UHGV virus genome: UHGV-1375876
Length of the DNA: 45,898 nt
Strand: one strand, 5' to 3'
Source: a virus
A program made the position numbers and the translations under genes. The notes under the pieces are model-generated. The model ran no database searches. It saw only the letters and a program-made list of their open reading frames with translations, and had not been told where the DNA came from. Below are positions 3,779 to 32,621 of the stretch, piece by piece. Within the stretch, counting starts at the first letter, position 1, and each line of letters opens with the position of its first letter.

Positions 3779-3920
3779 CCCAATAGGTAAAGTATGAGGT
3801 TTGACATCCTCCCCCTGAAGGGAGAGGTTTTACGGCGCGTTGGATAAATATTCAACCCTTGAATATACAATAGGAATTACAGCGGCACCATTTAATGTTG
3901 ACTATAATTTTACCTATTGG
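3779..3920. promoter_or_regulatory. rightward immunity-region control sites: inverted half-site-related repeats CCAATAGGTAAA (3781..3792) and TTTACCTATTGG (3909..3920), and a perfect TATAAT at 3903..3908
   Basis: The two 12-mers are exact reverse complements about 115 bp apart and share the GGTAAA core with the operator. A further related sequence, CTGGTAAAAAATAGGTC, is at 3750..3766. Confidence 0.45.
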
Positions 3921-3932
3921 TATTTAGTTCCC

Positions 3933-4178
3933 ATGAAGAACGAACTTTCCCACCCTAGTTTTTACGGCTTCACAATTACTGACGCGGCCGCACGCTCAGG
4001 GCTTCCTTATGTGACGGTGTGGAGGCATTTCAAAAAACATCGCGCTATAAGCCCTGAAACTGCCATTCGTTATAATCGTTTTTTGGGTATCCCCCTTTCA
4101 TCTCTCAGGCCTGATCTGTGGCCTCCAACCCTCCCCAGCACTCCCACCGAACCCGAAGAGGTAGACCGTGCTGGATGA
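3933..4178 (+). CDS. putative Cro/CII-like HTH regulator
   Basis: 81 aa from an internal ATG. An HTH-like segment (TITDAAARSGLPYVTVWRHFKK) lies near the N-terminus. It is the first rightward gene after the non-coding region. No clear Shine-Dalgarno. Confidence 0.4.
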   Translation: MKNELSHPSFYGFTITDAAARSGLPYVTVWRHFKKHRAISPETAIRYNRFLGIPLSSLRPDLWPPTLPSTPTEPEEVDRAG

Positions 4179-11142: not shown

Positions 11143-11543
11143 GTGGCGGCAGGCCTGCGATAAAACGATGCAAAGAAAAGGCCTCGCTTGTAGAGGTGAT
11201 GGCTCAATACGGCGTACCGCAGGATGAAATTGCCGCAAAGATCGGCATGTCTGCTGATACGATGGTGAAGCTCTACAAAAAAGAGCTACTTTCCGGGAGG
11301 ACAAACGCTAATTTCAAAGTGGGAAAGCGACTGTTTGATAAAGCCATGTCGGGGGATACAACGGCCCTCATTTTCTGGGCAAAGACCCGGATGGGGTGGA
11401 GAGAGACGCAAAAAGTCGATCTTTCCAGTTCCGATGGAACGATGTCGCCTGTACCAGCACTTGAACTTTCCCATCTTTCTCCCGATGATCTGCTCAAGCT
11501 GACGCGGGAAGCCTTCAAAGAGACGGAGAGGAATGGCGGGTGA
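11139..11543 (+). CDS. terminase small subunit
   Basis: HTH-containing protein of about 134 aa immediately upstream of the large terminase. ATGA coupling on the upstream side. Confidence 0.65.
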   Translation: MSGGRPAIKRCKEKASLVEVMAQYGVPQDEIAAKIGMSADTMVKLYKKELLSGRTNANFKVGKRLFDKAMSGDTTALIFWAKTRMGWRETQKVDLSSSDGTMSPVPALELSHLSPDDLLKLTREAFKETERNGG

Positions 11544-14500
11544 GACGCTTGCTGAAATCCGCCGTGCGCTGGCCAGGAGCTGCATGGCGGCCTTCGTGCG
11601 CCACACCATGCCCGCCTACCGCATGGGCTGGGTGCATGAGGAGGTTTGTGCCGAACTGGACGCCTTTCTTGCCGATGTCGTAGCCGGGCGTTCCCCGCGT
11701 CTCATGCTGACCATGCCCCCGCGTCACGGGAAACTGTGCGCTGATGATACTCCTGTTTTGACGGTTGATGGGTGGAAAACTCATGGTGCGCTTAAGGTTG
11801 GTGATTATGTATTTCACCCAAGTGGCAAACCTGTGAGGGTTGTTGCTGTGGGCGAGAAAAATTTTGCCACTCATTCTGTTGTTTTTACCAATGGCGACAT
11901 AATAGATGTGCACCTTGATCATGAGTGGCGGGTGTATGACAGGACTAAACCCGGATATAGAACAGTTGAGACACGATACTTTGTGGAGCCAAGCAAAAAA
12001 ACTAAGGCGCTTAGGAAGCTGGATAGCGGTATCCCAGACACCAGAGGGCACAGGTATTTGTATCAGGTGGACACAGCTGATGCTCCCCAATGGCCTGCCG
12101 TAGAACACGTTATCCCGCCATACGTTTTGGGCGTGTGGTTAGGTGATGGAACGTCAATCGCGCCCAGAATAAACATGGCTCCTGATGACGCTTGTGTCGT
12201 CAAAATGGAGTTTGAACGACTAGGTGTGCCAATAACTGGAACATGGGTGCATAGAGATACTGGAGTTGAAACTTTTTCATTTGCCAGCGGCGTGAAAAAT
12301 AGAAGAAATATATTTTCGCAGGCTCTAAAAGATGCTGATCTGCTAAAAAATAAACATATTCCTAATGAGTACAAGCATGATAGCCTAGAAAACAGGCTTG
12401 ACTTGCTTGCTGGACTTATTGATACGGATGGTCATTTTGATAGAAAGACAAACAGATATCGTTTTACAACATCCAATGAGCTGTTAGCGCATGATGTAGA
12501 AGAATTGGCCATGCTATGCGGGTTTGTAGCGCATACAAATATCCCAGCACTAGATAATCGGGAAAGAACGATTAAAAATAAGTCACAGGTTTATGTGGTG
12601 TCATTTTTCTTTTCCGGTGTAGTTGTCCCGTGCAGACTTGAACGGAAAAAAGTTAATAAAACGTTTTCTTCTCTGCGTCGGCGCGTATCCATCAAATGTG
12701 TACGAGCGCTAGAGTCGCCTAAAATGGGGAATTGTATTCAGGTGGATAGTCCAGATGGCTTATATTTAGTTGGCAAACACCTTACGATAACCCACAATAG
12801 CGAGCTGGCCTCCCGCCGCTTCCCGGCCTACGCCTTGGGCCGCTACCCCGATCTATCCGTCATTTCAACGAGCTACGCCGCCGACCTGTCCTCGCGCATG
12901 AACCGCGATGTTCAGCGTGTCATCGACAGCCCGGAATACCGGGAACTCTTCCCGGGAACAGCCCTTTACGGCAAGAATATCCGCACCGTCGGGAACGGCT
13001 CTTATCTCCGCAACTCGGATATCTTCGAAATCGTGGGGCACGCTGGCTGCTACCGTTCCGCTGGCGTGGGCGGCGGCATCACGGGCATGGGTGGGCATAT
13101 CGTCATCGTCGACGACCCGTTCAAGGACCGGGCGTCCGCCGATTCCCCGACCATCCGCCAGAACGTCTGGGACTGGTACACGTCCACGTTGTACACGCGC
13201 CTCGCGCCCGGTGGAGGGGTGCTCATCATCAACACTCGCTGGCACATGGCTGACCTTTCCGGGCGGCTGCTTGAGGCCGCCGCACGGGGGGAGGGCGACC
13301 ACTGGCGCGTGGTAAACTTCCCGGCCATCGCCACGGAGGATGAGCCGCACCGCAAGGCAGGTGAAGCCTTACACCCTGAACGCTACCCGTTGGAGCAGCT
13401 TCTTGCCATCAAGAAAGCCCTCGGCACACGCGACTGGGAGGCCCTGTACCAGCAGCGGCCTACGCCAGACGGCGGCGCCATCTTCAAATCCGAGTGGCTG
13501 CGGTTCTGGCTCCCCAAAGACCTGCCGGAGCAGTTCGACCAGCTCCTTATCTCGTGGGATATGACGTTCAAGGACGGCGACGATACCGACTTTGTTGTGG
13601 GGCAGGTGTGGGGCCGCAAGGGGGCAGACCGCTACCTCCTCGATCAGGTCCGGCGGCGCATGGGATTTACGGACACGGTCGCCGCGTTCCGAGCGCTCGC
13701 CGCTAAATGGCCCGGCGCAACCCGTAAGCTGGTGGAGGATAAGGCCAACGGCCCGGCGGTCATCGACGCGCTGAAACACGCCGTGCCCGGTATCATCCCC
13801 GTGGAGCCGGACGGCAGCAAGACGGCTCGCGCCCATGCTGTGACCACGTTCTTCGAGGCCGGGAACGTCCTTATCCCGCACCCTGAGCATTGCCCGTGGG
13901 CGCGGGAGTACGTCGCGGAACTGACGCAGTTCCCCGGAGCGCCCCACGACGATCAATGTTTTGCTGCAGGCACTTTAGTTGCGACTTTGCGAGGGGGTAT
14001 CCCAATTGAAAAAGTAAAGGAAGGTGATTTTGTTGTGACTCCTCAAGGGTTTAGGCGTGTGTTGTTCGCTGGAAAAACCGGAGAGTCTGTGTTATTGTAT
14101 CGACATGGAATTTTTGCAACTGCGAATCATCCGTTCATGAAAACCAGTGGAGAAGTTTGCAAATTTGCAGAAATAGAAAAGTCTGAACTTGTTCACATGA
14201 CTATAAGGGAGTTGCTAGTATGGATATTCCGAAAAGAGTTGAATTTAATGGCGTCACCTATGCCCTCATGGCAGGGGGGAAATACTATCTTAGTCAGTCA
14301 AAAACAAACGCAGGTAGGAAAAATCCGAAGGGGCTTCATGTCGCTATTTGGGAATACTACAGTGGCAAGAAAGTCCCTAAAGGGTATGAGATTCATCACA
14401 AAGATGGTAATACACATAACAACAATTTTGACAACCTTGAGTGTTTATCACGTTGTGAACACCGCAAAACGGTTAAGCAAAACAAAGAAAAATGCCGTAA

Positions 14501-15021
14501 GCACCTTGAAGAAGTACGCCCTCTTGCTACTGAGTGGCACAGGAGCGAAGAAGGCCGTGCATGGCATCGAGAGCAAAGCAGGAAGGCATACGCAAAAAGA
14601 GAGTATACTGAGCATGTTTGTGAGTACTGCGGCAAGACGTATAAAACGCGCCATACGGGAAAAAACCGCTTCTGTTCCCATAATTGTGAAATCAAATGGC
14701 GATATCACAATGAATACGAGCTTGCCGAGGGTGTGTGCCAATGGTGCGGCAAACCGTTCACATACAAGACCGGAACCTGCAGAAAAAACAAAGTACGTAA
14801 ATTCTGCAGCAAGTCTTGCAGCACAAGCCACTTCAACGCCCAACGCCGTGCCAGTGTATAACCTCACCGTAGAGGGCGAGCACCTTTATTTTGCTAATGG
14901 GGTGCTCGTCCACAATTGTGACGCCACCACTCAGGCCCTCCGCGACTTCGACGCCAAACGCCCCATGTCTATCAATCCTGCTATCCTCACTCAACCACGT
15001 ATAGGGTATCGCTTCCGGTAA
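11533..15021 (+). CDS. terminase large subunit precursor interrupted by two inteins (extein about 488 aa)
   Basis: Exteins carry P-loop PPRHGK..S, Walker B IVIVDDPF and nuclease HDD motifs. One continuous 1162-aa frame spans two Hint-type insertions. Confidence 0.85.
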   Translation: MAGETLAEIRRALARSCMAAFVRHTMPAYRMGWVHEEVCAELDAFLADVVAGRSPRLMLTMPPRHGKLCADDTPVLTVDGWKTHGALKVGDYVFHPSGKPVRVVAVGEKNFATHSVVFTNGDIIDVHLDHEWRVYDRTKPGYRTVETRYFVEPSKKTKALRKLDSGIPDTRGHRYLYQVDTADAPQWPAVEHVIPPYVLGVWLGDGTSIAPRINMAPDDACVVKMEFERLGVPITGTWVHRDTGVETFSFASGVKNRRNIFSQALKDADLLKNKHIPNEYKHDSLENRLDLLAGLIDTDGHFDRKTNRYRFTTSNELLAHDVEELAMLCGFVAHTNIPALDNRERTIKNKSQVYVVSFFFSGVVVPCRLERKKVNKTFSSLRRRVSIKCVRALESPKMGNCIQVDSPDGLYLVGKHLTITHNSELASRRFPAYALGRYPDLSVISTSYAADLSSRMNRDVQRVIDSPEYRELFPGTALYGKNIRTVGNGSYLRNSDIFEIVGHAGCYRSAGVGGGITGMGGHIVIVDDPFKDRASADSPTIRQNVWDWYTSTLYTRLAPGGGVLIINTRWHMADLSGRLLEAAARGEGDHWRVVNFPAIATEDEPHRKAGEALHPERYPLEQLLAIKKALGTRDWEALYQQRPTPDGGAIFKSEWLRFWLPKDLPEQFDQLLISWDMTFKDGDDTDFVVGQVWGRKGADRYLLDQVRRRMGFTDTVAAFRALAAKWPGATRKLVEDKANGPAVIDALKHAVPGIIPVEPDGSKTARAHAVTTFFEAGNVLIPHPEHCPWAREYVAELTQFPGAPHDDQCFAAGTLVATLRGGIPIEKVKEGDFVVTPQGFRRVLFAGKTGESVLLYRHGIFATANHPFMKTSGEVCKFAEIEKSELVHMTIRELLVWIFRKELNLMASPMPSWQGGNTILVSQKQTQVGKIRRGFMSLFGNTTVARKSLKGMRFITKMVIHITTILTTLSVYHVVNTAKRLSKTKKNAVSTLKKYALLLLSGTGAKKAVHGIESKAGRHTQKESILSMFVSTAARRIKRAIREKTASVPIIVKSNGDITMNTSLPRVCANGAANRSHTRPEPAEKTKYVNSAASLAAQATSTPNAVPVYNLTVEGEHLYFANGVLVHNCDATTQALRDFDAKRPMSINPAILTQPRIGYRFR
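11737..12798 (+). mobile_element. intein 1 (354 aa) in the terminase ATPase P-loop, with a LAGLIDADG homing-endonuclease domain
   Basis: Starts CADDTPVLTVDGW and ends LTITHN with S at +1. LAGLIDADG motifs are LGVWLGDGT and LLAGLIDTDGHF. Markedly AT-richer than the flanking sequence. Confidence 0.75.
13957..14916 (+). mobile_element. intein 2 (320 aa) in the terminase nuclease HDD motif, carrying a nested HNH endonuclease ORF in another frame
   Basis: Starts CFAAGTLVATLRGG after HDDQ. Ends VYNLTVEGEHLYFANGVLVHN with C at +1. Block B is TANHPF. AT-rich. Confidence 0.75.
14220..14861 (+). CDS. HNH homing endonuclease with C-terminal Zn-finger repeats, free-standing ORF nested inside intein 2
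   Basis: HNH motif GYEIHHKDGNTHNNNFDNLECLSRCEHR, followed by multiple CxxC pairs. It has its own AAGGGAG Shine-Dalgarno and ATG. It is in the +2 frame relative to terminase, while the terminase frame stays open. Confidence 0.75.
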   Translation: MDIPKRVEFNGVTYALMAGGKYYLSQSKTNAGRKNPKGLHVAIWEYYSGKKVPKGYEIHHKDGNTHNNNFDNLECLSRCEHRKTVKQNKEKCRKHLEEVRPLATEWHRSEEGRAWHREQSRKAYAKREYTEHVCEYCGKTYKTRHTGKNRFCSHNCEIKWRYHNEYELAEGVCQWCGKPFTYKTGTCRKNKVRKFCSKSCSTSHFNAQRRASV

Positions 15022-15076: not shown

Positions 15077-16627
15077 ATGAGCAAGAAGCGCACTTATCGC
15101 CACGCTACCTCCATAGCCCCGCAAGCCGTGCAGCCGTCGCGCCGTCTGAATCTCTCCCCGGACGTGCGCGGCGGCCTTGCTCAACCTTTGCCACCTACGC
15201 CCGAAGACATCAGCCGGTTGTACGGTCCTGCGAAGACGCTCGGCGCGCCCGAAGATGTGCAGCTTGCGATGGATGCGCGGCTTGCGGATTCCGGCGTCTA
15301 TTCCCTGCTCCAGCACTCGCTTGAGCTTGGGGTCGGGATTGCGCCGCAATTCATGGGCTACGGCGTCCTCCAGAACCTTGCCCAGAACGGCCTGATCCGT
15401 GCCTGCGTCGAGACGGTATCCGACGATATGACCCGAGCGTGGATTGAGTTCAAGCGCGAAGGGGAGGGCGGCGACGAATCATTGCTCACCGACCTTGCGC
15501 AGGCGTGCAAGCGGTTCGCCCTGCAACGCCTTTTCCATGAGGCGACCGAGCTTGTGGGGTACGAGGGTGGGGCCTTCCTTTTCATCGACACCGGGTCCGT
15601 CGGCCAAGAGCTGGAACGCCCGCTGAACGTCAGCCCGTATTCCGCCGAACTCAGGCCCGGCGGCGTGCTGCGCTTCGTCGTCATCGACCCCGTGAACGTC
15701 TTCCCCGGCGACTACAACAGCCTTTCGCCGCTTGAGCCGGACTACTTCCGCCCGCGTTGGTGGTGGGTGCTCGGGAAGCGGGTGCACGCCTCTCGCCTCA
15801 TCCGATTGGTTGCGAACGAATGCCCGGTGCTGCTGCGGCCCGCCTACAATTTCCTAGGCATCCCGCAGGCCCAGATCCTCTGGGATTACGTCCTGCATTT
15901 TCAGGAATGCCGCGCCGCCGAAGCCCGGCTACTGACCAAGTTTTCGCTGACCGTCTTCAAGACGAAGATGGAAGACATCCTGTACGCGGCCGGGGGCACG
16001 GCACAGATCGATACCCGCATCCGGTACATGATTCAGACCATGACCAATGACGGCGTGCTTGCCGTCGACAAAGAATCGGAAGACGTGGTCAAGCTGGAAA
16101 CCCCGCTTTCAGGCGTGACCGACATCGTGCGCCAGTCCCTTGAAATCCTCGCCGCCCTGAACCGAACCCCGGCGGTCAAGCTGCTCGGCATCAGCCCGTC
16201 AGGGTTCAATGCCACGGGCGAATCGGATATCCGTAACTATTACGATCATGTCAGGAGCCAGCAGGAGAAAGTCCTGCGCGACGGCATCAAGAAGGCGCTC
16301 GACTGTATCCAGCTCTACCTGCGCGGAACCATCGACCCTTCCGTGACTTTCGACTTCGCGCCCCTCGGCGAAGAGGATAGGGCGGCCCTTGCGACGCTCC
16401 AGAAGACCAAGGCCGACACCATCGCCGTCTACATGGATCGGGACATCATCTCTCAGGAAGAAGCCCGGCAATCCCTTGCCAGTGACCCGGACAGCGGCTT
16501 CTCCGACATCGACCCGGCGGAAGTGCCGCAGGGCAACGGAATGCCTGACGCCCTGCCGGAAACCGGGGAAGAGGGATTGATGCCCGACATCGACGATGTG
16601 GACAAGGCCGGGGCCGTCTATGGCTAA
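15077..16627 (+). CDS. portal protein (putative)
   Basis: 516 aa. It follows the large terminase and precedes the head morphogenesis protein. Acidic C-terminus. Confidence 0.65.
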   Translation: MSKKRTYRHATSIAPQAVQPSRRLNLSPDVRGGLAQPLPPTPEDISRLYGPAKTLGAPEDVQLAMDARLADSGVYSLLQHSLELGVGIAPQFMGYGVLQNLAQNGLIRACVETVSDDMTRAWIEFKREGEGGDESLLTDLAQACKRFALQRLFHEATELVGYEGGAFLFIDTGSVGQELERPLNVSPYSAELRPGGVLRFVVIDPVNVFPGDYNSLSPLEPDYFRPRWWWVLGKRVHASRLIRLVANECPVLLRPAYNFLGIPQAQILWDYVLHFQECRAAEARLLTKFSLTVFKTKMEDILYAAGGTAQIDTRIRYMIQTMTNDGVLAVDKESEDVVKLETPLSGVTDIVRQSLEILAALNRTPAVKLLGISPSGFNATGESDIRNYYDHVRSQQEKVLRDGIKKALDCIQLYLRGTIDPSVTFDFAPLGEEDRAALATLQKTKADTIAVYMDRDIISQEEARQSLASDPDSGFSDIDPAEVPQGNGMPDALPETGEEGLMPDIDDVDKAGAVYG

Positions 16628-17402: not shown

Positions 17403-19118
<1,716 letters not shown>

Positions 19119-19129
19119 GAGGCACACCA

Positions 19130-19710
19130 TGCCTTTGCAGTCCCAAGTCAATCTCTCCGTCGCTCCCGGCGTTGCGGGCGATAAAGCGACGCCCGACCAG
19201 AGCATCTACACCCCGCTCAACCCTCTGGCGGCGGTGGCCCTCCCTGTGGGGCGCTTCGTCTTCCCTGTCGTGGATTCCGGCGTGATCGACAACACGCAGG
19301 CCACCAACGTTGCGGGCACCGCCACAGCCGTGCTCGGCTTCGTGGAGCGCGTCATCAACTACGTGAACTATGAAATTTTTTCTGACGGCACCCTGACCGT
19401 CCCGGCAGGCTCGAACCTCACCGTGGCCGTGAAGGGCGACTATTGGGCCGTTTCCACGACCAAGGCCACGGTGGGGCAGGCCGTCCTTGCCTCCACCGCT
19501 GACGGTTCAATCAGCACCGGGACCCCCGACGGGACGCACCTCGATACGGGGTGGGTCGTCAAGACGCCAGGTGAAATCGGGGAACCGATCATCATAAGCA
19601 ATTGGGGACAGGCCGCAGCGTCGGGATCCGGCGGCGACACCTCGAACCTGATGCAGAAAGATTTCAGCAACGCCACCGGAGCGCTCGGCGCAGCCGCCGC
19701 CGGAGCGTAG
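19130..19710 (+). CDS. head structural protein (decoration or cement-like, putative)
   Basis: AGGAGG Shine-Dalgarno. 193 aa, Gly/Ala/Thr-rich, lying between the scaffold and the major capsid gene. Confidence 0.4.
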
Positions 19711-19720
19711 GAGGTACTAC

Positions 19721-20734
19721 ATGAATCCGACTTTTGAACAGGCCAAGCGCTACGGCTTTATCTTCCCGGGCGCCCGCATGTGGGCAACCCCGGAGAACCG
19801 CGCCCGCATTGCGCAGGACGCCGCGCTCATCACTACTCCGAACACGACCGTCCCCGCCGAGCTTCTGGCGTATATCGACCCGATGGTCATCGAAATCCTG
19901 ACCGCGCCCCGGCGCGCCCGCGAAATCTTCGGCGAAGAGAAGAAGGGCGACTGGACGACCCCGTACATGAAGTGGCGCGTCGACGAAATGACCGGAAAGA
20001 CCGAGCCGTATTCCGACTATGCCAACGGCACGACTTCGGGCGTGAACTCAGAATGGCAGACCCGCGTGCAGTACGTCTTCCAGACGTCCATCACCTACGG
20101 CGATTTTGAAGTGGACATGTCGAGCACGGCGAAAGTCAACCTGGCTGCCTCCAAGCAGCGCGCGGCGGCCAACGTCATCGACATCGACCAGAACCGTTTC
20201 TACCTGCTCGGCGTCGCCGGGAAGGAAATCTACGGTATCCTCAACGATCCGAACCTCCCTGCTGCGATCACCGCAGGGGCCACGGGCACGGGCGGCTCCA
20301 CGAAATGGGCCGACAAGACCACGGTGCAGATCTACAATGACGTCCTCGCCCTGTTCGCGCAGCTTTCCGAGCAGTCCAGCGGCCTTATTGACAAGGACAC
20401 GCCCCTCAAGCTCTGCCTCTCCCCCGAACTGGCCGTTCGCCTCGGCGCGGCTACCGATTTCAACGTGTCCGTGCTGGATATGTTGAAGCGGTACTTCACC
20501 CGCATTGACATCGTGACCGTACCCGAGCTGCATAGCATGACCGCCGGGGAAACCATATTTCTCATCGCCCCCGAAGTGAACGGGCAGCGATCCGGCACGC
20601 TGGCCTTCGGAGAAAAGATGCGTGCCGGACGCGTCGTGCCCGACCTGTCCAGCTTCCGTCAGAAGTTCGTCGGCACCACCTACGGCGGTATCGTGCTCAT
20701 GCCCTTTGCCTTTGCGCAAATGACTGGAGCCTAG
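19721..20734 (+). CDS. major capsid protein
   Basis: 337 aa with a GGAGGT Shine-Dalgarno, the last gene of the head block, followed by a strong terminator. Confidence 0.65.
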   Translation: MNPTFEQAKRYGFIFPGARMWATPENRARIAQDAALITTPNTTVPAELLAYIDPMVIEILTAPRRAREIFGEEKKGDWTTPYMKWRVDEMTGKTEPYSDYANGTTSGVNSEWQTRVQYVFQTSITYGDFEVDMSSTAKVNLAASKQRAAANVIDIDQNRFYLLGVAGKEIYGILNDPNLPAAITAGATGTGGSTKWADKTTVQIYNDVLALFAQLSEQSSGLIDKDTPLKLCLSPELAVRLGAATDFNVSVLDMLKRYFTRIDIVTVPELHSMTAGETIFLIAPEVNGQRSGTLAFGEKMRAGRVVPDLSSFRQKFVGTTYGGIVLMPFAFAQMTGA

Positions 20735-20756
20735 TCCCATCCTTCCCTCCATGCGA

Positions 20757-20795
20757 AAGCCCCAACCGCCTGTTTAACGGTTGGGGCTTTCTTTA
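20757..20795 (+). terminator. rho-independent terminator after the capsid gene
   Basis: Hairpin GCCCCAACCG-cctgtttaa-CGGTTGGGGC followed by TTTCTTT. Confidence 0.7.
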
Positions 20796-20806
20796 CGTAT
20801 CAGGCG

Positions 20807-21028
20807 TCATTTTCCAAGCTGCTGTATATTTGCGTCCAGCCACATCTCGACTGCTTCCCGTACTACCTGTGAGCGTAGGATACCCCTATCCGTACATATA
20901 TCGTTCAGCCGTTCCCAGACATGATCCGGCATAGATACAGTCTTTACTGTTGCACGATCTTCAACCTTTTTTTTACGTCCAGATCCTTTGCGGCGGCCTC
21001 CGTGTTTTTTTTCTTGCGCGTCACTCAT
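20807..21028 (-). CDS. ribbon-helix-helix (CopG/Arc-like) DNA-binding protein with a K/R-rich N-terminal tail
   Basis: RHH-like core VKTVSMPDHVWERLNDICTDRGILRSQVVREAVEMWL. It is the second gene of a two-gene unit with 21143..21647. Confidence 0.55.
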   Translation of the reverse strand: MSDAQEKKHGGRRKGSGRKKKVEDRATVKTVSMPDHVWERLNDICTDRGILRSQVVREAVEMWLDANIQQLGK

Positions 21029-21142
21029 CCGTTGCGTCTCCCTTCATCAAAAAGCTATCTCCTTCCCATTGGCTGCGCCAGAATTATCCTTATTGAGTTG
21101 ACTGTCTTCGAGCTGAAATCGATAAGATCGTCGATGTCTATC

Positions 21143-21647
21143 TTAGTCTTCCTCTTCATCGTCTGCCTCCGTTGACGCTTGCAGCTTTATGAACTCGGGA
21201 AGAACCGCGATACTTCCACATTCGTCATCCATTCCAACAGCCTTGAAGCCCAACTTACGGGCAAAGGCGATACGCATGGCCTGAGCCTCCCAACCCGCGT
21301 CGTCCTCGTCCATTCCGAGAAGGTCTGCCCAGTCTTCCCGTTCTTGAAAGTCCAGTTCTTCCGAAACCACGGCTTGCCAGCATAGATCAAAATGGATTTC
21401 GTCTATCCCGCGCTCTTCCATAATTTCACGTAGAGCCGTTCCCGCAGCACCGTCATCAAGATACGGAAGGTCTTCCGTAAAAAAGATATCCTTGACGTCT
21501 ACTTCGCACTGGTAGACGTAATCTCCGTATCCCTTTGCTGTTCCATACGTGCGGGCAAAGAACATCGCTCCGAAGTTATACCCTAACCCTGTTCCTGAGT
21601 TAGATATAGCCAAATGTTCAATCATGCTTCCGTGGTACAGCTTCATG
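21143..21647 (-). CDS. Arr-like/PARP-like (H-Y-E class) mini ADP-ribosyltransferase domain fused to an acidic C-terminal domain
   Basis: The N-terminal MKLYHGS...GYNFGAMFFAR...GDYVYQCEV aligns with the HGT, YFSA and GYIYIVEP motifs of Arr and PARP catalytic cores. The C-terminus is very acidic (EADDEEED). AAAGGAGAAG Shine-Dalgarno. Confidence 0.4.
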
Positions 21648-21690
21648 GTGGCTTCTCCTTTACCCTTTCGTTGAAAATACAATAGCACCA

Positions 21691-21724
21691 TTTTTTGAAA
21701 AAATAAACAATTTTTTCAAAAAAA
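21691..21724. promoter_or_regulatory. AT-rich perfect inverted repeat TTTTTTGAAAAAA-N7-TTTTTTCAAAAAAA upstream of the ART-like gene (candidate operator)
   Basis: 13/14-bp arms are exact reverse complements. It lies 45-75 nt upstream of the ART start. Confidence 0.5.
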
Positions 21725-21769
21725 GTTTTATCTTTTTTAACTCGTCAGTAACAGAAGGGAGAGGCAGAA

Positions 21770-21803
21770 AAACAAAAAGGGGCGGCTCTTAAAGCCACCC
21801 CTT
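21770..21803 (-). terminator. rho-independent terminator after gene 21825..22136
   Basis: On the minus strand the hairpin GGGGTGGCT-ttaag-AGCCGCCCC is followed by TTTTTGTTTTT. Confidence 0.65.
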
Positions 21804-21824
21804 TTCTACGATATTCTTTCTTTA

Positions 21825-22136
21825 TTAGAATCCGAGCCAGCCGAAGCCCTTGGCCATAACGGCGACAAGTGCAAACCCTATGGCGATTTGCCATTTCAAA
21901 AGATCATACTTGACCTTCAACACTTCAGCACGAATTTTTTCGATCTCCGCTTGCACTTTCAGGTCCAATTCCCGAATTTCTTTTTGCAACCGCAGTTCCG
22001 TTTCGCGCAGATCTCCCTTGGTGGCACTGGCGTTCCTTTGGCTCTCGTCAAAGCGTTCCAGTACTTCCACGATGGCTTTTGCGGCTTCCTCGCCGACGGC
22101 CTTTTCAAGCTTTTTTCCATCATCGAACAGCAACAT
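21825..22136 (-). CDS. coiled-coil protein with a C-terminal transmembrane anchor
   Basis: GGAGGGA Shine-Dalgarno. Heptad-rich sequence and the hydrophobic C-terminal tail LLKWQIAIGFALVAVMAKGFGWLGF. Confidence 0.45.
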   Translation of the reverse strand: MLLFDDGKKLEKAVGEEAAKAIVEVLERFDESQRNASATKGDLRETELRLQKEIRELDLKVQAEIEKIRAEVLKVKYDLLKWQIAIGFALVAVMAKGFGWLGF

Positions 22137-22191
22137 GGGGGAATCCCTCCGTTGGTGAAGTCTTATATGATTCATGCAGGCTTGCCAAGGA

Positions 22192-23112
22192 TTACCCTAG
22201 CATCAACCTGTTTGCCGTCTTCGCGGCACGGATTGCCGCTCTCATTTCCGAGATTCCCGCGTCAATCCACGTCTGGGCGTTGTACGAGTTGGATTGCAGG
22301 ATGCCGAGGAGCGGGTCTTTCGAGATGTTCTGCCGGGAACATATCCGGTTCAGCAATTCGGGATAAGTGCTCTCCTTGACGCGCAGGAGCTCGTTGACGA
22401 ATTGGTGCAGCCGGGAGCGGGTTTCCCCCGCGAATTCGATCCATTCCTCTTCGAGGCGGTCGAGGGCCTTCATGCGGTCGGCGTAAATTGAAGAGGCGGG
22501 AAGCACCGGGGTACGGGCGGGGGCGGGCACAGCGGGGAGAGCGTCAATCTTTGCCTGTACCCACTGAATAGCCTCCTTAACCTGCGCTACGGTCAGGGCG
22601 TCCACAGAAGTGACGCCGAAATGGGCGTTTACCTGCGCACGGGCCGAGGCGTAGTGAATCGGGGCCATGCCCACCCATGTGTTGATGATGGCGGTAAGCG
22701 CCTTACGTTCCGGGTCGGTACGCTTGGAAATGGGAGAAGGGGTGGGGAATGGAACGGGCTTGACTTCATATCGTCCCGTCTTACGGATGGATGGCACGAC
22801 TTCCGAAGCAATCCAGTTGGTGAAAGCGTCCGCTTCTGGCTTATTGGAGCGGAAGGCCAGTTTGTACACAGCGGGCTCAATTATGGCTCTAACCTGTTGA
22901 TTTCCTGAGGGGGTGGTAAGTTTTACCAACCCTTTCCAATCAGCAGGAATGGCATCAAGGGTATGCCCTGTCCAACCGATATTGAGCGCAGAGCAAATAT
23001 CTCTGGCGACGAACCAGAGCGTTTCGCCTTTAAGTTGGGTACGGATAGGGTGATTTTGAAACTGAAAGGGAGGTACGGGGGATACTTCGGAGAGAAGTTC
23101 GGCTTGAGACAT
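22192..23112 (-). CDS. Bro-N domain protein (phage antirepressor-like)
   Basis: Bro-N signature ..GETLWFVARDICSALNIGW..AFTNWIASEVVPSIRKTG. TAGGAG Shine-Dalgarno at the internal ATG. Confidence 0.6.
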   Translation of the reverse strand: MSQAELLSEVSPVPPFQFQNHPIRTQLKGETLWFVARDICSALNIGWTGHTLDAIPADWKGLVKLTTPSGNQQVRAIIEPAVYKLAFRSNKPEADAFTNWIASEVVPSIRKTGRYEVKPVPFPTPSPISKRTDPERKALTAIINTWVGMAPIHYASARAQVNAHFGVTSVDALTVAQVKEAIQWVQAKIDALPAVPAPARTPVLPASSIYADRMKALDRLEEEWIEFAGETRSRLHQFVNELLRVKESTYPELLNRICSRQNISKDPLLGILQSNSYNAQTWIDAGISEMRAAIRAAKTANRLMLG

Positions 23113-23624
23113 GGTAAAACTCCTATGTTTGATCTGAATTGCGCTTTTCAAAAAAAGAAAAGCGCCGGGTGTTCAGAACGGCCATAGGAACCGCTGGCGG
23201 CCTTTAGCTTTCGCTTGGACATATCCGCCACACCCGGCAAACATTGGATGCAATCATAGCCCAAAAGACAGCCAAGAAAAATCTTGACTTTCATAAAAGG
23301 GCACAAAAAAGCGCCATGCTGTCGGGTGGCTTACCGCCTATGGTCGGGGTTCTGAAGCCCGTGCACAAAAGACAGCACAAAACTCTGAAAATGTAAAGAG
23401 AAAAGCAGTGGCGTTGCCCGCATCTGGATGTTCTTCATCTGCATTGGCGGACAACGCCACGTTGGAAGTTTTACTTGTTATCGTATTTCAAGGCCGTAGC
23501 CCGGATTCGATCCGCAAAGGGAATAATATCTTCCATCCCAGATTCTTTACCTTTTTCGACAATTCAGCAATTCTTTCCGAAAAATCCATGGTCCTCTCTC
23601 CCTGTTCGGATTCAAGTTAATATA

Positions 23625-24224
23625 TTAAGATTTATATATTTTCTTATAGGTTTTCCAAGAATACAGTCCGGAAAGGATAGTGAGGATTCCCCATAACAAG
23701 GCCCCATTCGTATTGGGCGGCGTTTGGAGGGCACAACTCAGCCACAATACGGCTAGCACTACTGTTATCAGCACTCCAATGATAAGGGCAATTTTTTTAG
23801 GGGGCGTCTGAGAACGTTCATGATGTATAAGCGGGTTTGGTTCTCCACGCTCTTGGGCCAATTGGTCATCAAAAAGATAGGCACGGATAACCTCCATCAT
23901 GGGGCTATTTACTTTTGCCAATGCCTTATTTCCATTTTTGAACTCAATAATGACGGTAGACTCAGTTGTCTTGCCTCCAGCTACCGCACCCGCAACCGCT
24001 CCGATGCCTCCAAGCAAGACGCCGCCGACAAGCGCGCCCCCCAAGGTCCCTCCGAGTTTTTTTACCGATTCCTCGTTGGCTACTTCACAAGAGGCAATAC
24101 TGGAAAGAAAAAGTTCCTTTGCTCCAAACATTTTTGAAGAGCAACGCAACTGGTTTTTATTTTTAATGTAAATATATTCTTCTTTCCCGTAGTCCCCTGC
24201 CAGAAATTTGATGTAGGTAGCCAT
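23625..24224 (-). CDS. membrane protein with a glycine-zipper segment and C-terminal TM helices (accessory gene)
   Basis: GGTLGGALVGGVLLGGIGAVAGAVAGG followed by two hydrophobic helices. It is distinctly AT-rich relative to the rest of the genome. AAGGGGGATGATG Shine-Dalgarno. Confidence 0.5.
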   Translation of the reverse strand: MATYIKFLAGDYGKEEYIYIKNKNQLRCSSKMFGAKELFLSSIASCEVANEESVKKLGGTLGGALVGGVLLGGIGAVAGAVAGGKTTESTVIIEFKNGNKALAKVNSPMMEVIRAYLFDDQLAQERGEPNPLIHHERSQTPPKKIALIIGVLITVVLAVLWLSCALQTPPNTNGALLWGILTILSGLYSWKTYKKIYKS

Positions 24225-24329
24225 ACATCATCCCCCTTATATTATAGATGAGGCTATCATGGCATAGGCCGTTCCAAAAATCCACCGCCGCCGCCCTCCG
24301 CCCCGAAAGGGGCTTTTCTTTTGCCTGTA

Positions 24330-24347
24330 CGAACCTTGTTCACGGTG
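24330..24347 (+). promoter_or_regulatory. conserved 18-mer CGAACCTTGTTCACGGTG, copy 3, upstream of the Bro-N/Rha genes
   Basis: Identical 18-mer. Confidence 0.5.
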
Positions 24348-24385
24348 TGCCCCCACGCCGCCATGCGGCATCATCTCCAAAACAC

Positions 24386-24938
24386 TATGGAGGTGCAGCG
24401 ATGGAAAATTCCCCCCCTGGCTCTTTTTGAGCATGAAAAGTTCGGTTCCCTTCGCGTCGTCAGAAGCGATCAGGGGGCCCAGTGGTTCGTGGCGAAAGAC
24501 GTGTGCGGGTGTCTCGGGCTGGATACCAGTAACCTTTCAAAAATGTTGGATGAAGACGAGCTTTCGACCTACCCCGTACAGTATACGGATCAGGTCAGGA
24601 ATCTTTCCGTCGTATCCGAACCGGGCCTGTATTCCCTCATCCTGCGTTCCCGCAAGCCCGAAGCCAAGGCGTTCAAGCGGTGGGTGACGCATGAGGTCAT
24701 CCCTTCTATCCGCAAGACTGGCGCGTATGCGACGAACAATGCCCTGACCATGCCGAACTTCTCCAATCCGGCGGAAGCCGCGCGTGCGTGGGCTGACGAA
24801 TACGAAGCCAAGCAAAGGAGTGCTCTTATCTTATTGAAGAGAATGAGTAAGCCCCCGTTCCTTGACAGGTTCGGGGGCTCATGCTATCGAAAGGTTGTCA
24901 CACCAAGAGCCGATAGCATCGGTCTGGTCCTTCAATGA
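24386..24938 (+). CDS. Bro-N domain protein with a degenerate C-terminal region
   Basis: LALFEHEKFGSLRVV..AQWFVAKDVCGCLGL..AFKRWVTHEVIPSIRKTG. The linker MPNFSNPAEAARAW matches the Rha gene linker LPNFRDPIAAAEAW, but the following domain appears truncated. Confidence 0.55.
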
Positions 24939-24998
24939 GGCGAATGTGTTGGAGCCTCATCGTCGGTAGAACCAACCAACACAAGAAGGATAGATGAT

Positions 24999-25811
24999 AT
25001 GAATGATTCTGTCAAGTCTCTCGTTGAAGTAAGCACTCGCACCATCAATGGCAAGGAGGTCCTCGCCGTAACCTCGCTTCAGGTGGCGGCGCACTTCGGG
25101 AAGAAACACAAGGACGTTTTGAGGGACATCCGTGTAACCATTGAAAAATGCTCACAGGAGTTTAACGAGCGCAACTTTGCGCCCGTTGAGTACACGGATG
25201 CCAAGGGCGAAAAACGCCCCATGTATCTGCTTTCCAAAGACGGGTTCATGATGGTCGCGATGGCGTACATCACGCCCGAGGCCATGCGTATCAAGGAAGC
25301 CTATATCGCCCGCTTCAACGAAATGGAAGAACAGCTTCGCACCACGTCGCCGCTTCTCCCCAACTTCCGCGACCCCATCGCGGCAGCCGAGGCGTGGATT
25401 GTGGCGGAACGCGCGCGGCTGGCGGAACAGGCTCGTGCCGACTATTATTACCAGCGCACCAAGGCCGAAATCGGTTCACGCCGCGAGGCCACCGCGATGG
25501 CAACCGCCTCCGCAGCCGTACGCAAGGCTGCGGCTCTTGAGAACGAACTTGGGCGGGGCAGGGACTACAAGTCCGTGAAGGGCATCCCGTGGTTCCTTGA
25601 CATCTTCGCAGATACGCCAGCCGCGTACTCCGTCGCGGGACGCAAGCTTTCCGATATGTCCCGCCGTATGGATTACGAAATCCGGGAAATCGAGGACAGC
25701 CGTTTCGGGAGCGTCAAGGCGTACCACGTCGACGTGATCGAAGCCTTCCGGCTGGCCCTGAAAAATGACTTGAACATGCTGGGCAAGTATCGCCTTCGCC
25801 GGGCGGCATAG
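24999..25811 (+). CDS. Rha-family phage regulatory protein with a KilA-C/ANT-like C-terminal domain
   Basis: Rha core VTSLQVAAHFGKKHKDVLRDIR. AAGGA Shine-Dalgarno. Confidence 0.65.
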   Translation: MNDSVKSLVEVSTRTINGKEVLAVTSLQVAAHFGKKHKDVLRDIRVTIEKCSQEFNERNFAPVEYTDAKGEKRPMYLLSKDGFMMVAMAYITPEAMRIKEAYIARFNEMEEQLRTTSPLLPNFRDPIAAAEAWIVAERARLAEQARADYYYQRTKAEIGSRREATAMATASAAVRKAAALENELGRGRDYKSVKGIPWFLDIFADTPAAYSVAGRKLSDMSRRMDYEIREIEDSRFGSVKAYHVDVIEAFRLALKNDLNMLGKYRLRRAA

Positions 25812-28215: not shown

Positions 28216-29721
28216 ATGAGCGTCAATGCCGACAAACTGGTTCAAATCATCCCCCGCATTATCGAGGGCGGCACGCCGGGCCTGACCTTCGCCGGGCTCC
28301 TGCTTTCGCAGTCCGAGCTTTTGCCCGCAGGCAGAGTCGTGCAGTTCGCCAGCGCGCAGGCCGTGGCCAATTATTTCGGCTCGCTTTCGGAAGAGGCAAG
28401 CATGGCTTCCATGTACTTCTCCGGCTACGTGAACACGACGAGCCTCCCGGACAAGATTTTCTTTGCCCGGTACAACGGCGAGGCCGTGGGCGCATGGCTG
28501 CGCGGCGCGAAGTATACGGGCAATCTCGCCGTGTTGCAGGCCGTCACCAACGGCGCGATGGTCATTTCCATCGACAACACGCCGCACACGCTTTCCTCCG
28601 TGGATTTGTCCGCTGCGACCAGCTTCTCGCAGGTTGCGGAGGCGATCCAGACTGCGCTCACGACGGCGGGCGCGACCGGGGCGAAGGTGACGTACTCCAG
28701 CCAGACTGGGGCGTTCCAGATCGACAGCCCGACGACCGGGGCAAGTTCCGCCGTGGCCTTTCCGACGCCGCCGGAAGCCGGGACCGACCTCGGCGCGCTG
28801 CTTCTGCTCACCGAACAGTCCGGTGCCGTCCAGTCCGTAGGCATGGCTGGCCAGACGCTCCCCGACTGCATGACCAACGTGCTCCTGTACGCCCGCGATT
28901 GGGTGACGTTCGGGACGGTCTGGGAACCCGAACTTGACGATAAGATCGCGCTCGCACAATGGTGCGCCGGGTATGACACCCGTTTTGTCTATGTGATGTG
29001 GGATACCGACAACGCCGCGCAGGTCGCGGGCTCCACAGCCTCGGCGGGGTATCAGATTGCCAAGGTGCTCGAACTCGACGGGACGGTTCCCGTGTTCAAC
29101 ACGCCTGAACTCGCCGCGTGGGTCATGGGCACGGCGGCCTCCATCAACTTTGAAGAGACGAACGGACGGCTCACCTTCGCATTCAAGCAGGGCGAAGGGC
29201 TTGCCGTAACCTGCGACAACGACGAGAACTATGACGCGCTGATCGCCAACGCCTACAACTGCTATGCGGACTTCGCCACGGCCTCCAGCCAGTTCAAGTT
29301 TTTCCAGAACGGGCAGGTTTCTGGCAAATGGGGCTGGCTCGACACGTACCTTGACGCCATCGCCATTAAAGACGGCCTCCAGTTGAATCTTTTGGACCTG
29401 TTCAAGGCCGTAAAGTGCATCCCCTACAACGAGAGCGGCTACGGCATGATCCGTACGGCCTGCCTCGACACCATCACGCGTTTTCTCGACTTCGGGGCTA
29501 TCCGCACGGGCGTGACCCTCTCGAACACCCAAAAGGTGCAGCTCCTCGCGGAAATCGGGCTGGACGTTTCCCAGACGCTTGAAACGCAGGGCTGGTATAT
29601 GCAGGTCAAGGACCCCGGCGCGACCGTACGCGGACAACGCCAGTCCCCCGAATGCAAATTTTACTACATGGACGGCGGCAGCGTGCAGCAAATCGTCATG
29701 CCCGCCACGGCCATTCAGTGA
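28216..29721 (+). CDS. contractile tail sheath protein
   Basis: 501 aa, with an AAAGGAGGG Shine-Dalgarno. Followed by tube, frameshifted chaperone and tape measure, the canonical myovirus order. Confidence 0.7.
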   Translation: MSVNADKLVQIIPRIIEGGTPGLTFAGLLLSQSELLPAGRVVQFASAQAVANYFGSLSEEASMASMYFSGYVNTTSLPDKIFFARYNGEAVGAWLRGAKYTGNLAVLQAVTNGAMVISIDNTPHTLSSVDLSAATSFSQVAEAIQTALTTAGATGAKVTYSSQTGAFQIDSPTTGASSAVAFPTPPEAGTDLGALLLLTEQSGAVQSVGMAGQTLPDCMTNVLLYARDWVTFGTVWEPELDDKIALAQWCAGYDTRFVYVMWDTDNAAQVAGSTASAGYQIAKVLELDGTVPVFNTPELAAWVMGTAASINFEETNGRLTFAFKQGEGLAVTCDNDENYDALIANAYNCYADFATASSQFKFFQNGQVSGKWGWLDTYLDAIAIKDGLQLNLLDLFKAVKCIPYNESGYGMIRTACLDTITRFLDFGAIRTGVTLSNTQKVQLLAEIGLDVSQTLETQGWYMQVKDPGATVRGQRQSPECKFYYMDGGSVQQIVMPATAIQ

Positions 29722-30695: not shown

Positions 30696-30826
30696 GCCGG
30701 AACCTCGCGACGTTGCACGAAATGCAGACAGTATACGGCCTGTCCGATGCCTACGAGATGCTAGAAATCATCGCCGTGGACGGCCACAACCAACGCCTCT
30801 GGAGCAAATTCCATGAACGCAGGTGA
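30198..30826 (+). CDS. tail assembly chaperone, long form, produced by a putative -1 programmed frameshift at T TTT TTG (30590..30596)
   Basis: The -1 frame stays open from the slippery run to 30826 and encodes protein-like sequence (..NLATLHEMQTVYGLSDAYEMLEIIAVDGHNQRLW..). This parallels the G/GT or E/E' arrangement before the tape measure. Confidence 0.45.
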
Positions 30827-32621
30827 ACTCGTCGTCAGCCTCTTGCTGAAAGCAGGGGATTTTAAAGCGCAGGTGCAGTCCGCACAAGAGCGGCTGGACG
30901 GCGTGCAGGCCGCAGCCGTTGACGTGGGGCGCGCGACATATGACGCAGGCGTCAAGGGGGCCCAAGGGCTTGGTCAATCTGCCGATGCCGCCTCTTCGTT
31001 GCAAGCCGCTTTTGATGAAGCCGTGCAAAAAGGCCGCGAAATCAGCGAGGTCACGAAAGAGTATCAGCGGATGCGCGAGGAGCTTATCCGCACCGGAGCG
31101 ACAAAAGAACGTCTTGAGGCCCTTGATGATGCAGCGAAAAAACTGGGCGTTTCGCTGGAAGACGCGGCGGACAAAGGCGCGTTTGGCTTTGAACGGCTCA
31201 AGAGCGTGGCAGCGCAGGCCCTCGCCGTCATCGGCGGCGTTTCCATCCTGAAAAGCTCCATAGCGCAGTATTACGAGCAGGCTCAGGCTATTGAGAAGAC
31301 TTCGGACGCGCTCGGCATGAGCATTGAAGACTGGCAGGCATGGCAAAGGACGGCAGCCTCCGCCGGGGTTGACGCCGAGGAGCTTTCGACCCGGTTCATG
31401 GATCTGGGCGACTGGATGCAGGATCTCATCTTGCACGACTCGGGGCCGCTCAAAGACGCGACCAAAGACTTGGGGGTGAGCTTCACGGATGCGAAAGGGA
31501 AGGCCGTTTCCTTTGAAGAAGGACTCCTTCGTCTCTCCGACGCCACGTCAAAAATCGACCGCCAGAAGGCGACCTCGATCCTCACGCAGATCGGCTTCGA
31601 CGAAAAAACCATCCCGCTCATCCTCAAGGGCCGCAAAGGGATTGAGGAGCTTCTGAAAGTCCAGAAGGCTCAAGCCATCTACAGCAAGCAGGACATCGAA
31701 AACGCGAAGAAGCAACGGGAGGCGCAGCAGCGGCTCAATGACGCATGGGAGGCCATCTCAGCCCTTTTCGCCAGCACCGTCTCCCCTGCGATCACGTTTT
31801 TGACGAACCTGCTCGGCGATCTCCTCGGGTGGGTGAAAGAAAACAAGCAGTTCGTGATAGTCTTCTTTACGGCGTTAGCCGGGGTCATTACGACGCTCAT
31901 GCTCCCGGCGTTGAGCGCGATGGCGACGGCGGCATGGGCTGCGATTGCGCCGTTTACGCCGTTGATTGCGGGCATCGGCGCGATCGCGCTGGTTGTCGAC
32001 GATCTCATTACCTACATCAAAGGCGGAGAATCTGCACTTTCCGGGCTCTGGTCGATGTTCGGAACTGGCGATGAAATCGGGGCTCGTTTCAAGGCTATTT
32101 GGGAAGGCATCAAAAGTATTCTCGGGGGCGTCTGGGATGCCCTTTCGGGGGTCGCCAAGCTCTTCAACTCCGTTCTTACTCTGGACGGAAAAGGCGTTAT
32201 CGAAGCCCTCAAAACGATCTGGGGAGGCATCTCCAAAATCAATGATGTGCTTGTCGAAATGCTGAACTGGGTAGCCCAGAAGCTCTACAATTTGCTTCCC
32301 GACTGGATCAAGGACTGGCTCGGCGGCGATGAGTCTTCGCGCCCGGAAGAAACGAAGGCCGAAGCCAAGCCCGGCGGCGTCGCCGATTCGATGCGGGTTG
32401 GTGATGTCCGCCCGTCTATTCTGCCGCCGCAGGTGCGCGCCGGGGATGCGCGTCCGGGAAGCGTGAGCAATGTCAACAATTCGCGTCAGATGACGTCAAC
32501 CACCAATGTGGGGGAGGTCAAGGTCTACACCCAGGCTACGGATGCGGAAGGGATGGCCCAAGGAGTGGTTCCGGCTCTTCGTAATCAGACCGCGCAAGCA
32601 GACAGCGCATTCGGGTACTGA
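30813..32621 (+). CDS. tail tape measure protein
   Basis: 602 aa, Ala/Gly/Leu-rich with coiled-coil and hydrophobic central segments. GGAG Shine-Dalgarno. Confidence 0.75.
   Translation: MNAGELVVSLLLKAGDFKAQVQSAQERLDGVQAAAVDVGRATYDAGVKGAQGLGQSADAASSLQAAFDEAVQKGREISEVTKEYQRMREELIRTGATKERLEALDDAAKKLGVSLEDAADKGAFGFERLKSVAAQALAVIGGVSILKSSIAQYYEQAQAIEKTSDALGMSIEDWQAWQRTAASAGVDAEELSTRFMDLGDWMQDLILHDSGPLKDATKDLGVSFTDAKGKAVSFEEGLLRLSDATSKIDRQKATSILTQIGFDEKTIPLILKGRKGIEELLKVQKAQAIYSKQDIENAKKQREAQQRLNDAWEAISALFASTVSPAITFLTNLLGDLLGWVKENKQFVIVFFTALAGVITTLMLPALSAMATAAWAAIAPFTPLIAGIGAIALVVDDLITYIKGGESALSGLWSMFGTGDEIGARFKAIWEGIKSILGGVWDALSGVAKLFNSVLTLDGKGVIEALKTIWGGISKINDVLVEMLNWVAQKLYNLLPDWIKDWLGGDESSRPEETKAEAKPGGVADSMRVGDVRPSILPPQVRAGDARPGSVSNVNNSRQMTSTTNVGEVKVYTQATDAEGMAQGVVPALRNQTAQADSAFGY

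Follow-up and report, generated by a model that had tools for sequence, protein, structure and literature searches.

What is encoded by the two small minus-strand genes that interrupt the plus-strand structural genes of the viral genome UHGV-1375876, between its head and tail blocks? The window, meaning the whole stretch of 45,898 nucleotides (nt) that was analyzed, is a tailed phage or prophage with a G+C content of ~58%. A first-pass annotation made from the letters alone described the unit as an ADP-ribosyltransferase gene followed by a gene for a ribbon-helix-helix (RHH) protein under an AT-rich palindrome, and compared it with toxin-antitoxin (TA) or phage counter-defense modules. Our analysis leads to the counter-defense side of this proposal, as the enzyme belongs to a family of proteins that inhibit CRISPR systems. 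The unit is a new AcrIF11-family example of the known design in which anti-CRISPR (acr) genes are joined to an anti-CRISPR-associated (aca) regulator gene, with a candidate RHH-type Aca and its candidate operator. It is likely that the whole functions as an autoregulated acr-aca operon of a Bilophila phage, with the AcrIF11-family enzyme as effector and the RHH protein as repressor. The elements of the unit, with proteins measured in amino acids (aa), are as follows.

21143-21646, minus strand: enzyme gene, encoding a 167-aa protein that starts MKLYHGS
20807-21028, minus strand: gene for the 73-aa RHH protein, the last gene of the unit
21660-21653, minus strand: Shine-Dalgarno sequence of the enzyme gene, AAGGAGAA
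21042-21037, minus strand: Shine-Dalgarno sequence of the RHH gene, GGGAGA
21647-21677, minus strand: short leader, consisting of TTTTCAACGAAAGGG (21677-21663) and then the Shine-Dalgarno sequence of the enzyme gene
21679-21719, minus strand: promoter region, with two readings that are both overlapped by the inverted repeat
21691-21723, minus strand: putative operator, TTTTTTGAAAAAAT-TGTTT-ATTTTTTCAAAAAA, formed by two near-palindromic T6(G/C)A6 boxes whose starts are 20 nt apart
21774-21806, minus strand: terminator that closes the upstream minus-strand genes, recognized in a terminator scan by its 15-pair stem and the T-run behind it
20755-20791, both strands: bidirectional terminator hairpin that separates the operon from the major capsid gene, with 14-nt arms that are 100% complementary and 9 nt apart

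The enzyme carries the identification. NCBIfam model NF052490.1 ("AcrIF11 family anti-CRISPR ADP-ribosyltransferase"), an equivalog model of 142 positions with a cut-off of 50 bits, matched the 167-aa protein with 97.6 bits (E 1.2e-27), residues 1-147 of 167 being aligned to profile positions 1-140; the curated cut-off of the AcrIF11 family is thus passed. Homologues with 74-99% identity to the protein, some of which are annotated as Bilophila wadsworthia proteins, carry the Pfam family PF26151 (AcrIF11_ADP_ribosyl). A Pfam scan of the 167-aa protein itself returned no PF26151 match, and its sole match was ART-PolyVal (E 0.08). ART-PolyVal (PF18760), the ADP-ribosyltransferase domain found in polyvalent proteins of phages and plasmids, is distantly related and was matched far under its gathering score (14 bits vs 31); in polyvalent proteins, AcrIF11-like and ART-PolyVal domains occur as separate, adjacent domains. 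When a profile of close homologues was compared with the PDB, both solved AcrIF11 structures were found (8DWQ, 1.3e-8; 6KYF, 1e-5), and a library-wide profile search returned 259 cluster representatives.

An AlphaFold run from only 14 close homologues was poor (predicted local distance difference test, pLDDT, 65, with the N-terminal half unfolded) and its Foldseek match to 6kyf was weak (E 0.014). This run was superseded by one with an alignment of 48 diverse members, which provides the model used here (pLDDT 91.7; predicted template modeling score, pTM, 0.87). The predicted ADP-ribosyltransferase fold superposes on the solved AcrIF11 structures, and further, more distant structural matches are diphtheria toxin, RES toxins, exotoxin A, PARPs, and Arr. 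The family model and the AcrIF11 structures therefore confirm the fold that had been suggested for the first gene. They also give a name to what had been called an unrecognized domain combination: with 97.6 bits against a cut-off of 50 and PF26151 on the close homologues, this is a recognizable acr-aca operon. Judged from its sequence, the 167-aa protein is an AcrIF11-family anti-CRISPR ADP-ribosyltransferase, predicted from its family to be NAD-dependent. The product of the gene has 167 aa, not the 168 aa that had been given in the earlier annotation. A longer open reading frame (ORF) of 182 aa from 21691 was rejected, as homologues begin with MKLYHGS after a strong Shine-Dalgarno sequence and the extension overlies the promoter.

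The catalytic residues of the family are conserved. In an alignment of 48 diverse stand-alone members, H5, Q122, G133, D141, E142, and G144 are invariant. The HMMER alignment places H5, Y34, and D141/E142 on H20, Y46, and D146/E147 of AcrIF11Pae2, of which the double mutants H20A/Y46A and D146A/E147A abolished both the ADP-ribosylation of Csy1 and phage protection (PMC12421852). In AcrIF11Pae1, the role of D146/E147 is filled by D115 (PMC12421852). The NAD-site His and the catalytic Asp/Glu loop expected of a family member are thus present as H5 and D141/E142. The His of the YHGS motif had been assigned to a catalytic H-Y-E signature, and this residue is indeed the conserved NAD-site His. The catalytic Glu had been sought in YQCEV (E48); the alignment places the acid at D141/E142 in MDDECGS instead.

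The protein is very acidic, with a net charge of -26. According to the AlphaFold model, a five-helix insert (residues 57-131) accounts for -16 of this charge, and an extra disordered tail of ~11 residues (157-167, STEADDEEED) for -7; among the sequences examined, the tail is restricted to the closest relatives. A separate acidic domain of about 90 aa that mimics DNA or protein, as earlier proposed, is not what the model shows. The region consists of the helical insert of the family and the last beta-strands, which bear D141/E142. Acidic residues of the AcrIF11 helical insert have been proposed to contact Cas7f lysines (Chen et al., PMC12421852), and because of this the idea that the insert imitates the charge of DNA is not absurd, even if no separate domain exists.

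Compared with AcrIF11 of Pseudomonas phages and plasmids (6KYF, 8DWQ), the protein shares the fold, the family model, and the His and Asp/Glu residues, and it is likewise a small stand-alone protein of a phage accessory locus with a beta-sheet core and a variable acidic helical insert. It differs in its host, which is a Desulfovibrionaceae gut bacterium and not a gammaproteobacterium, in its extra Asp/Glu-rich C-terminal tail, in its identity of 22-27%, and in a substrate that is assigned here by homology.

The enzyme and RHH genes form their own unit, delimited at both ends by terminators. The terminator at 21806-21774 insulates the operon's own promoter from the genes upstream, and the hairpin at 20755-20791, with TTTCTTT behind it on the plus strand, is 100% conserved in the related loci L001 and L011. 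The promoter itself can be read in two ways. Comparison with relatives gives an extended -10 element, TGCTATTGT (21687-21679), and a weak -35 element, TTTATT (21707-21702), whereas a promoter scan gave TTGAAA (21719-21714) and AAAAAT (21695-21690), which lie inside the two arms of the inverted repeat. An alignment of 25 upstream regions revealed that (T/C)AT(T/A)GT keeps a constant distance to a common leader. TATTGT (21684-21679) with its TGC extension is favored as the -10 element, because all promoter classes share (T/C)AT(T/A)GT-(A/G)TTTTCAACGAAAGGG. Under this comparative reading, the repeat covers the -35 element and the spacer. The leader is common to all promoter classes, although the promoters differ. 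An RNA-level element in the leader was considered and rejected, given a folding energy of -3.5 kcal/mol (z +1.4) and no Rfam match anywhere in the window.

The inverted repeat consists of two arms (21691-21704 and 21710-21723) of 14 nt each, which are 100% complementary and 5 nt apart. A perfect repeat had already been noticed here, with slightly shorter arms. Its 31-nt pattern is found once in the window and in none of 100 shuffles. In relatives, the same promoter region and repeat precede the first gene of the operon, whether this gene encodes a GNAT or AcrIF11, and the repeat is present in every examined relative that has this promoter type. Conserved inverted repeats in the core promoter are a general feature of acr operons under Aca control, and 21691-21723 is such a repeat.

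The second gene encodes an RHH protein with a Lys/Arg-rich N-terminal tail, as was first supposed. The 73-aa protein was matched by Pfam RHH_1 (E 0.0024) and by PHROG 876, "transcriptional repressor" (8.6e-5). Comparison with PDB profiles gave weak matches (E 0.0011 to ~1), mostly to RHH proteins, such as the CopG-family regulator 7by2, ParG (1p94), VapB26, MazE6, CopG, and Arc. One source names a member of its cluster "Alginate and motility regulator" (AmrZ), which we take to be an RHH protein. Residues 1-27 form a basic Gly/Arg/Lys arm with 10 Lys/Arg (GGRRKGSGRKKK), followed by the RHH core (~residues 28-68) and ~5 further residues. When distant homologues of the RHH protein were sought, no more than 11 relatives were returned, all of them close. 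A 97%-identical protein is encoded directly after the AcrIF11 gene in 10 of the 10 places shown, and the RHH gene is the 3' gene of the operon in every examined relative with this promoter type and a visible 3' end. A gene for a small DNA-binding protein within an acr operon is the usual mark of an aca gene, and the RHH gene has this position. The 73-aa protein is thus a candidate Aca repressor that probably switches off the promoter of the unit by binding the repeat, and it may represent a new RHH family of Aca proteins.

Aca proteins bind inverted repeats inside acr promoters (PMC9410906). In the known acr-aca operons (Aca1 to Aca13), one or more acr genes are likewise followed by a gene for a small DNA-binding protein and preceded by an inverted repeat in the core promoter, and the expected logic is strong early expression and then autorepression (PMC9410906). 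The regulators Aca1 to Aca13 have a helix-turn-helix (HTH), whereas the regulator in the window is an RHH protein. Aca14 of Pasteurella multocida is the first RHH-type Aca that was shown experimentally (bioRxiv 10.64898/2026.07.27.740549). Both Aca14 and the RHH protein of the window are small, have an N-terminal extension of ~28 residues, and occupy the aca position of an anti-defense operon; in both loci, the promoter contains an AT-rich inverted repeat, and Cas5f-like phage genes lie nearby. BLASTP of the window RHH protein against Aca14 gave no alignment, and hhalign gave a probability of 68% with 23% identity over 35 core residues only. The Aca14 operator is TGTATATG-N4-CATATACA over the -10 element, whereas that of the window would be TTTTTTGAAAAAAT-N5-ATTTTTTCAAAAAA (T6GA6-N7-T6CA6) over the -35 element and spacer or from -35 to -10; the cognate Aca14 motif was not found in the window repeat. 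The text of the Aca14 paper does not mention AcrIF11 among the Aca14 partners (bioRxiv 10.64898/2026.07.27.740549). By these comparisons, the window RHH protein is not demonstrably an Aca14. Together with its relatives, it adds candidates to the only just recognized class of non-HTH Aca proteins.

Sister phages carry a longer operon in the same slot behind the same promoter, with genes for a GNAT (118 aa), orf56, AcrIF11, a 463-aa protein, and then the 73-aa RHH protein. The 463-aa protein was matched by Pfam Cas_Csy2 with 41 bits (cut-off 25). Its residues 9-193 are 33% identical to residues 74-308 of Bilophila Cas8f (E 4e-29), and its residues 207-457 are 42% identical to Bilophila Cas5f/Csy2 (E 7e-61), so it is a fusion of a Cas8f fragment with a full Cas5f. 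A candidate role for this Cas8f-Cas5f fusion is that of a decoy subunit, by which the assembly of Csy could be poisoned. The fusion gene is at 4485-5876 in L001 and occurs also in L003, L011, L021-L025, L031, and L034-L036; in the NCBI annotation, the protein passes for a genuine Bilophila wadsworthia "type I-F Csy2". The GNAT gene (L001 3431-3787) and orf56, a 56-aa ORF (3808-3978), are the first operon genes in many relatives and are candidate additional enzymatic anti-defense genes. The GNAT of the relatives showed sequence similarity only to generic GNATs and none to AcrVA5, an anti-CRISPR with acetyltransferase activity.

Relative to L001, the window is without 562 bp (GNAT and orf56) and without 1258 bp of the fusion gene. 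In blastn, window positions 21661..21095 correspond to L001 3987..4549, and 21089..20701 to L001 5808..6197. The 114-bp gap between the window genes is thus a remnant of the fusion gene, in which tblastn matched residues 1-22 and 442-463 of the fusion.

21029-21159, minus strand: deletion scar of the fusion gene, with its first 22 and last 22 codons left and a frameshifted 34-aa ORF at 21055-21159

The reduced form is not an assembly artifact, because it recurs in many independent metagenome assemblies. The operon in the window is therefore the reduced form of a larger operon directed against type I-F CRISPR.

A type I-F system is also present in a Bilophila genome. AcrIF11 of Pseudomonas modifies Asn250 of Cas8f and blocks DNA binding. 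Characterized AcrIF11 showed high specificity for Cas8f in vivo (PMC12421852). The closest genuine Csy2 proteins belong to type I-F loci of Desulfovibrionaceae (Lawsonia-like, Bilophila, Mailhella, and Desulfovibrio genomes). One such locus, in an uncultured Bilophila sp. (L018), encodes a Cas2/3 fusion, a protein in the Cas8f position, Csy2, Csy3, and Csy4, and has two arrays with 28-nt repeats (GTTGTCCGCCGCGAAGGCGGTTTAGAAG) and 32-nt spacers. One of its 15 spacers (L018 13848-13879) matches the window at 30 of 32 positions (E 3.4e-9), with mismatches at positions 10 and 12. The 5'-CC that precedes the protospacer is the type I-F protospacer adjacent motif (PAM).

31368-31399, minus strand: protospacer in the tape-measure gene, with the CC PAM at 31401-31400

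A spacer match with a CC PAM means that the phage group is under type I-F pressure in Bilophila, and it ties the group to this genus and to I-F immunity. No papers on type I-F CRISPR in Bilophila emerged when the literature was searched. With the acrIF11 gene linked to a host type I-F system that holds a matching spacer, the two sides form a concrete arms-race pair, and an enzymatic anti-CRISPR is placed in phages of Bilophila, a clinically relevant sulfite-reducing gut bacterium. By homology, the enzyme probably disables the Csy complex of the host's type I-F system.

In the mechanism that we propose, the promoter at ~21719-21679 would drive transcription through the short leader, which is predicted to be unstructured, and then through both genes, acrIF11-family first and RHH second, up to the bidirectional hairpin beside the capsid gene. 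The 167-aa enzyme, using NAD+, would ADP-ribosylate Cas8f of the host type I-F Csy complex, if it acts as its homologues do. As the RHH protein accumulates, its dimers would bind to the pair of T6(G/C)A6 boxes overlapping the promoter, with repression as the result. Such autorepression would limit costly transcription head-on into the capsid gene.

The same enzyme is found under other control as well. Promoters of other classes in relatives have TTGACA, a spacer of 17-18 nt, and CATAGT or TATAGT, and accompany other small RHH genes: a 56-aa RHH_5 gene upstream, a 63-aa RHH gene upstream, an 85/97-aa RHH gene downstream, and a 62-aa RHH gene downstream, of which the last encodes a protein that is 31% identical to the window RHH protein. 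The enzyme thus occurs with at least five different small regulators, either upstream or downstream. The regulators at L007 1488-1676, L028 5872-6129, L038 4479-4724 and 3695-3886, and L003 2882-3052 have divergent cores. Those at the 3' end (L007, L028, and L038 4479-4724) have a common N-terminal arm, GG(R/S)RxGxGR(P/K), and those upstream (L003 and L038 3695-3886) a shorter VGRP arm. The arm resembles an AT-hook, and it may read A/T tracts while the core reads the center of the site.

A broader idea can be formulated from these loci, to which we give a somewhat less than even chance. The RHH protein would be the founder of a second family of RHH anti-CRISPR regulators, unrelated to Aca14, in which an AT-hook-like Gly/Arg arm and the RHH sheet together read the T6(G/C)A6 double box, and the five or more RHH types would be swappable regulator-operator cassettes placed before a constant leader and acrIF11. 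If this is true, the swapped cassettes would provide modular "plug-in" control for the anti-defense genes of Bilophila phages. The comparison of loci in itself reveals that these anti-defense operons gain and lose GNAT, orf56, and the Cas8f-Cas5f fusion, and swap regulators, but keep one leader.

Family membership, fold, catalytic residues, operon anatomy, repeat conservation, and the I-F system with its spacer are observed here, and the actual substrate of the enzyme and the binding of the RHH protein to the repeat are inferred. Several observations weigh against the autoregulated acr-aca operon as described. Those that concern regulation lead to a first alternative, in which the AT-rich palindrome is intrinsic promoter architecture, UP-element-like or curved A-tract DNA, and no operator, and the RHH protein acts elsewhere or on something else. 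T-runs and A-runs (T5-6/A5-6) flank the -35 element in all promoter classes, whichever regulator adjoins, and part of the symmetry may therefore be generic. The homopolymers of the left arm vary among relatives (T5 to T8, A5 to A6), and L003/L004 keep an 83%-identical RHH protein without this repeat. However, the dyad symmetry is perfect over 14 nt, and in the L011/L036 variant of the repeat both outermost positions are changed symmetrically, together with one uncompensated change. Moreover, this promoter type is in every case accompanied by this RHH gene and other types by other RHH genes, and the arrangement fits the established Aca pattern (PMC9410906). We therefore regard a palindrome without operator function as unlikely, even though part of it may be ordinary promoter architecture, and retain the repeat as the putative operator.

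The remaining doubts concern the target. An AcrIF11-like enzyme under the same regulation could act on another defense system, on another CRISPR type, or in host takeover, as do T4 Alt/ModA/ModB. The identity to the two characterized AcrIF11 proteins is low, and no part of the family varies more than the helical insert, which is thought to set target specificity (PMC12421852). AcrIF11-related domains also occur inside giant polyvalent phage proteins, beside other effector domains. The I-F locus was seen in an uncultured Bilophila species and not in the actual host strain, and a sequence comparison of Bilophila Cas8f with solved structures gave no match from which the target Asn could be located. 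Against this, the equivalog model NF052490 is passed by a large margin, sister phages have an operon partner made from I-F Cas8f and Cas5f, this phage is targeted by a Bilophila I-F spacer, and characterized AcrIF11 was, as noted, highly Cas8f-specific in vivo. A different target thus appears to be a decidedly small possibility, and Cas8f of the type I-F complex remains the probable substrate.

A TA module in which the ADP-ribosyltransferase is a growth-arresting toxin (as DarT, ParT, or RES) and the RHH protein its neutralizing and autoregulating antitoxin is highly improbable, and the DarTG comparison finds no support: the AcrIF11 structures and curated model are the best matches by a wide margin, PADLOC found no defense or TA model that matches either protein, the RHH protein ends ~5 residues past its core without a toxin-wrapping C-terminal segment, the 463-aa Cas-like gene separates the two genes in relatives, and the variety of regulators on either side of the enzyme is unlike the obligate, exclusive pairing of type II TA systems with an ADP-ribosyltransferase toxin (DarTG, ParST, RES-Xre, MbcTA). 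The genes should accordingly be labeled acrIF11 and putative aca, and not as a TA pair or as hypothetical proteins.

The operon is part of an accessory island between the head and tail genes, in which the G+C content is below that of the rest of the window. The minus-strand block extends beyond the enzyme and RHH genes to 24224, and in this phage group the junction of head and tail genes is generally a hotspot for accessory genes. When 19700-24400 was compared with the phage record collection by Megablast, there was no match. The surroundings are as follows.

11533-15021, plus strand: large terminase
15077-16627, plus strand: portal
17406-19118, plus strand: head protease
19721-20734, plus strand: major capsid, convergent with the two-gene operon
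21825-22175, minus strand: CCDC90-like coiled-coil/membrane protein gene
22192-23151, minus strand: Bro-N/Ant gene
23625-24224, minus strand: unannotated 199-aa ORF
24321-24938, plus strand: second Bro-N/Ant-type gene
24999-25811: Rha-like regulator, within the island (21825-25811)
28216-29721, plus strand: tail sheath
30813-32621, plus strand: tape measure

Further acrIF11 loci differ in their neighbors. In L029 (1152-1873), acrIF11 directly follows a hicA-hicB pair. The more distant homologues (L039-L042), with ~30% identity, are flanked by an HTH gene upstream and by a gene for a 60-aa RHH protein downstream (L039 3714-3911 and 5177-5359), and this RHH protein resembles Aca14 (..NYESITIRVP..).

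A second promoter with the same design of -10 element and leader is present on the minus strand at ~1890-2010 of the window. It consists of TTGACG, 17 nt, and TATTCT, followed by G-TTTTCAACGAGACGGGG; its spacer contains a separate palindrome, GGTAAAATTTACC, and a terminator lies immediately upstream of it. This promoter heads a run of small minus-strand genes (1626-1871 onward), and the shared leader may mark early or accessory promoters of the phage. Elsewhere in the window, the large terminase ORF has 1162 aa, with Hint and Intein_splicing matches at residues ~809-1128 and a LAGLIDADG_3 match at residues 289-337. G+C-poor patches lie within the gene at 12001-12500 and 14001-14500, and it probably holds one or two inteins or homing-endonuclease insertions.

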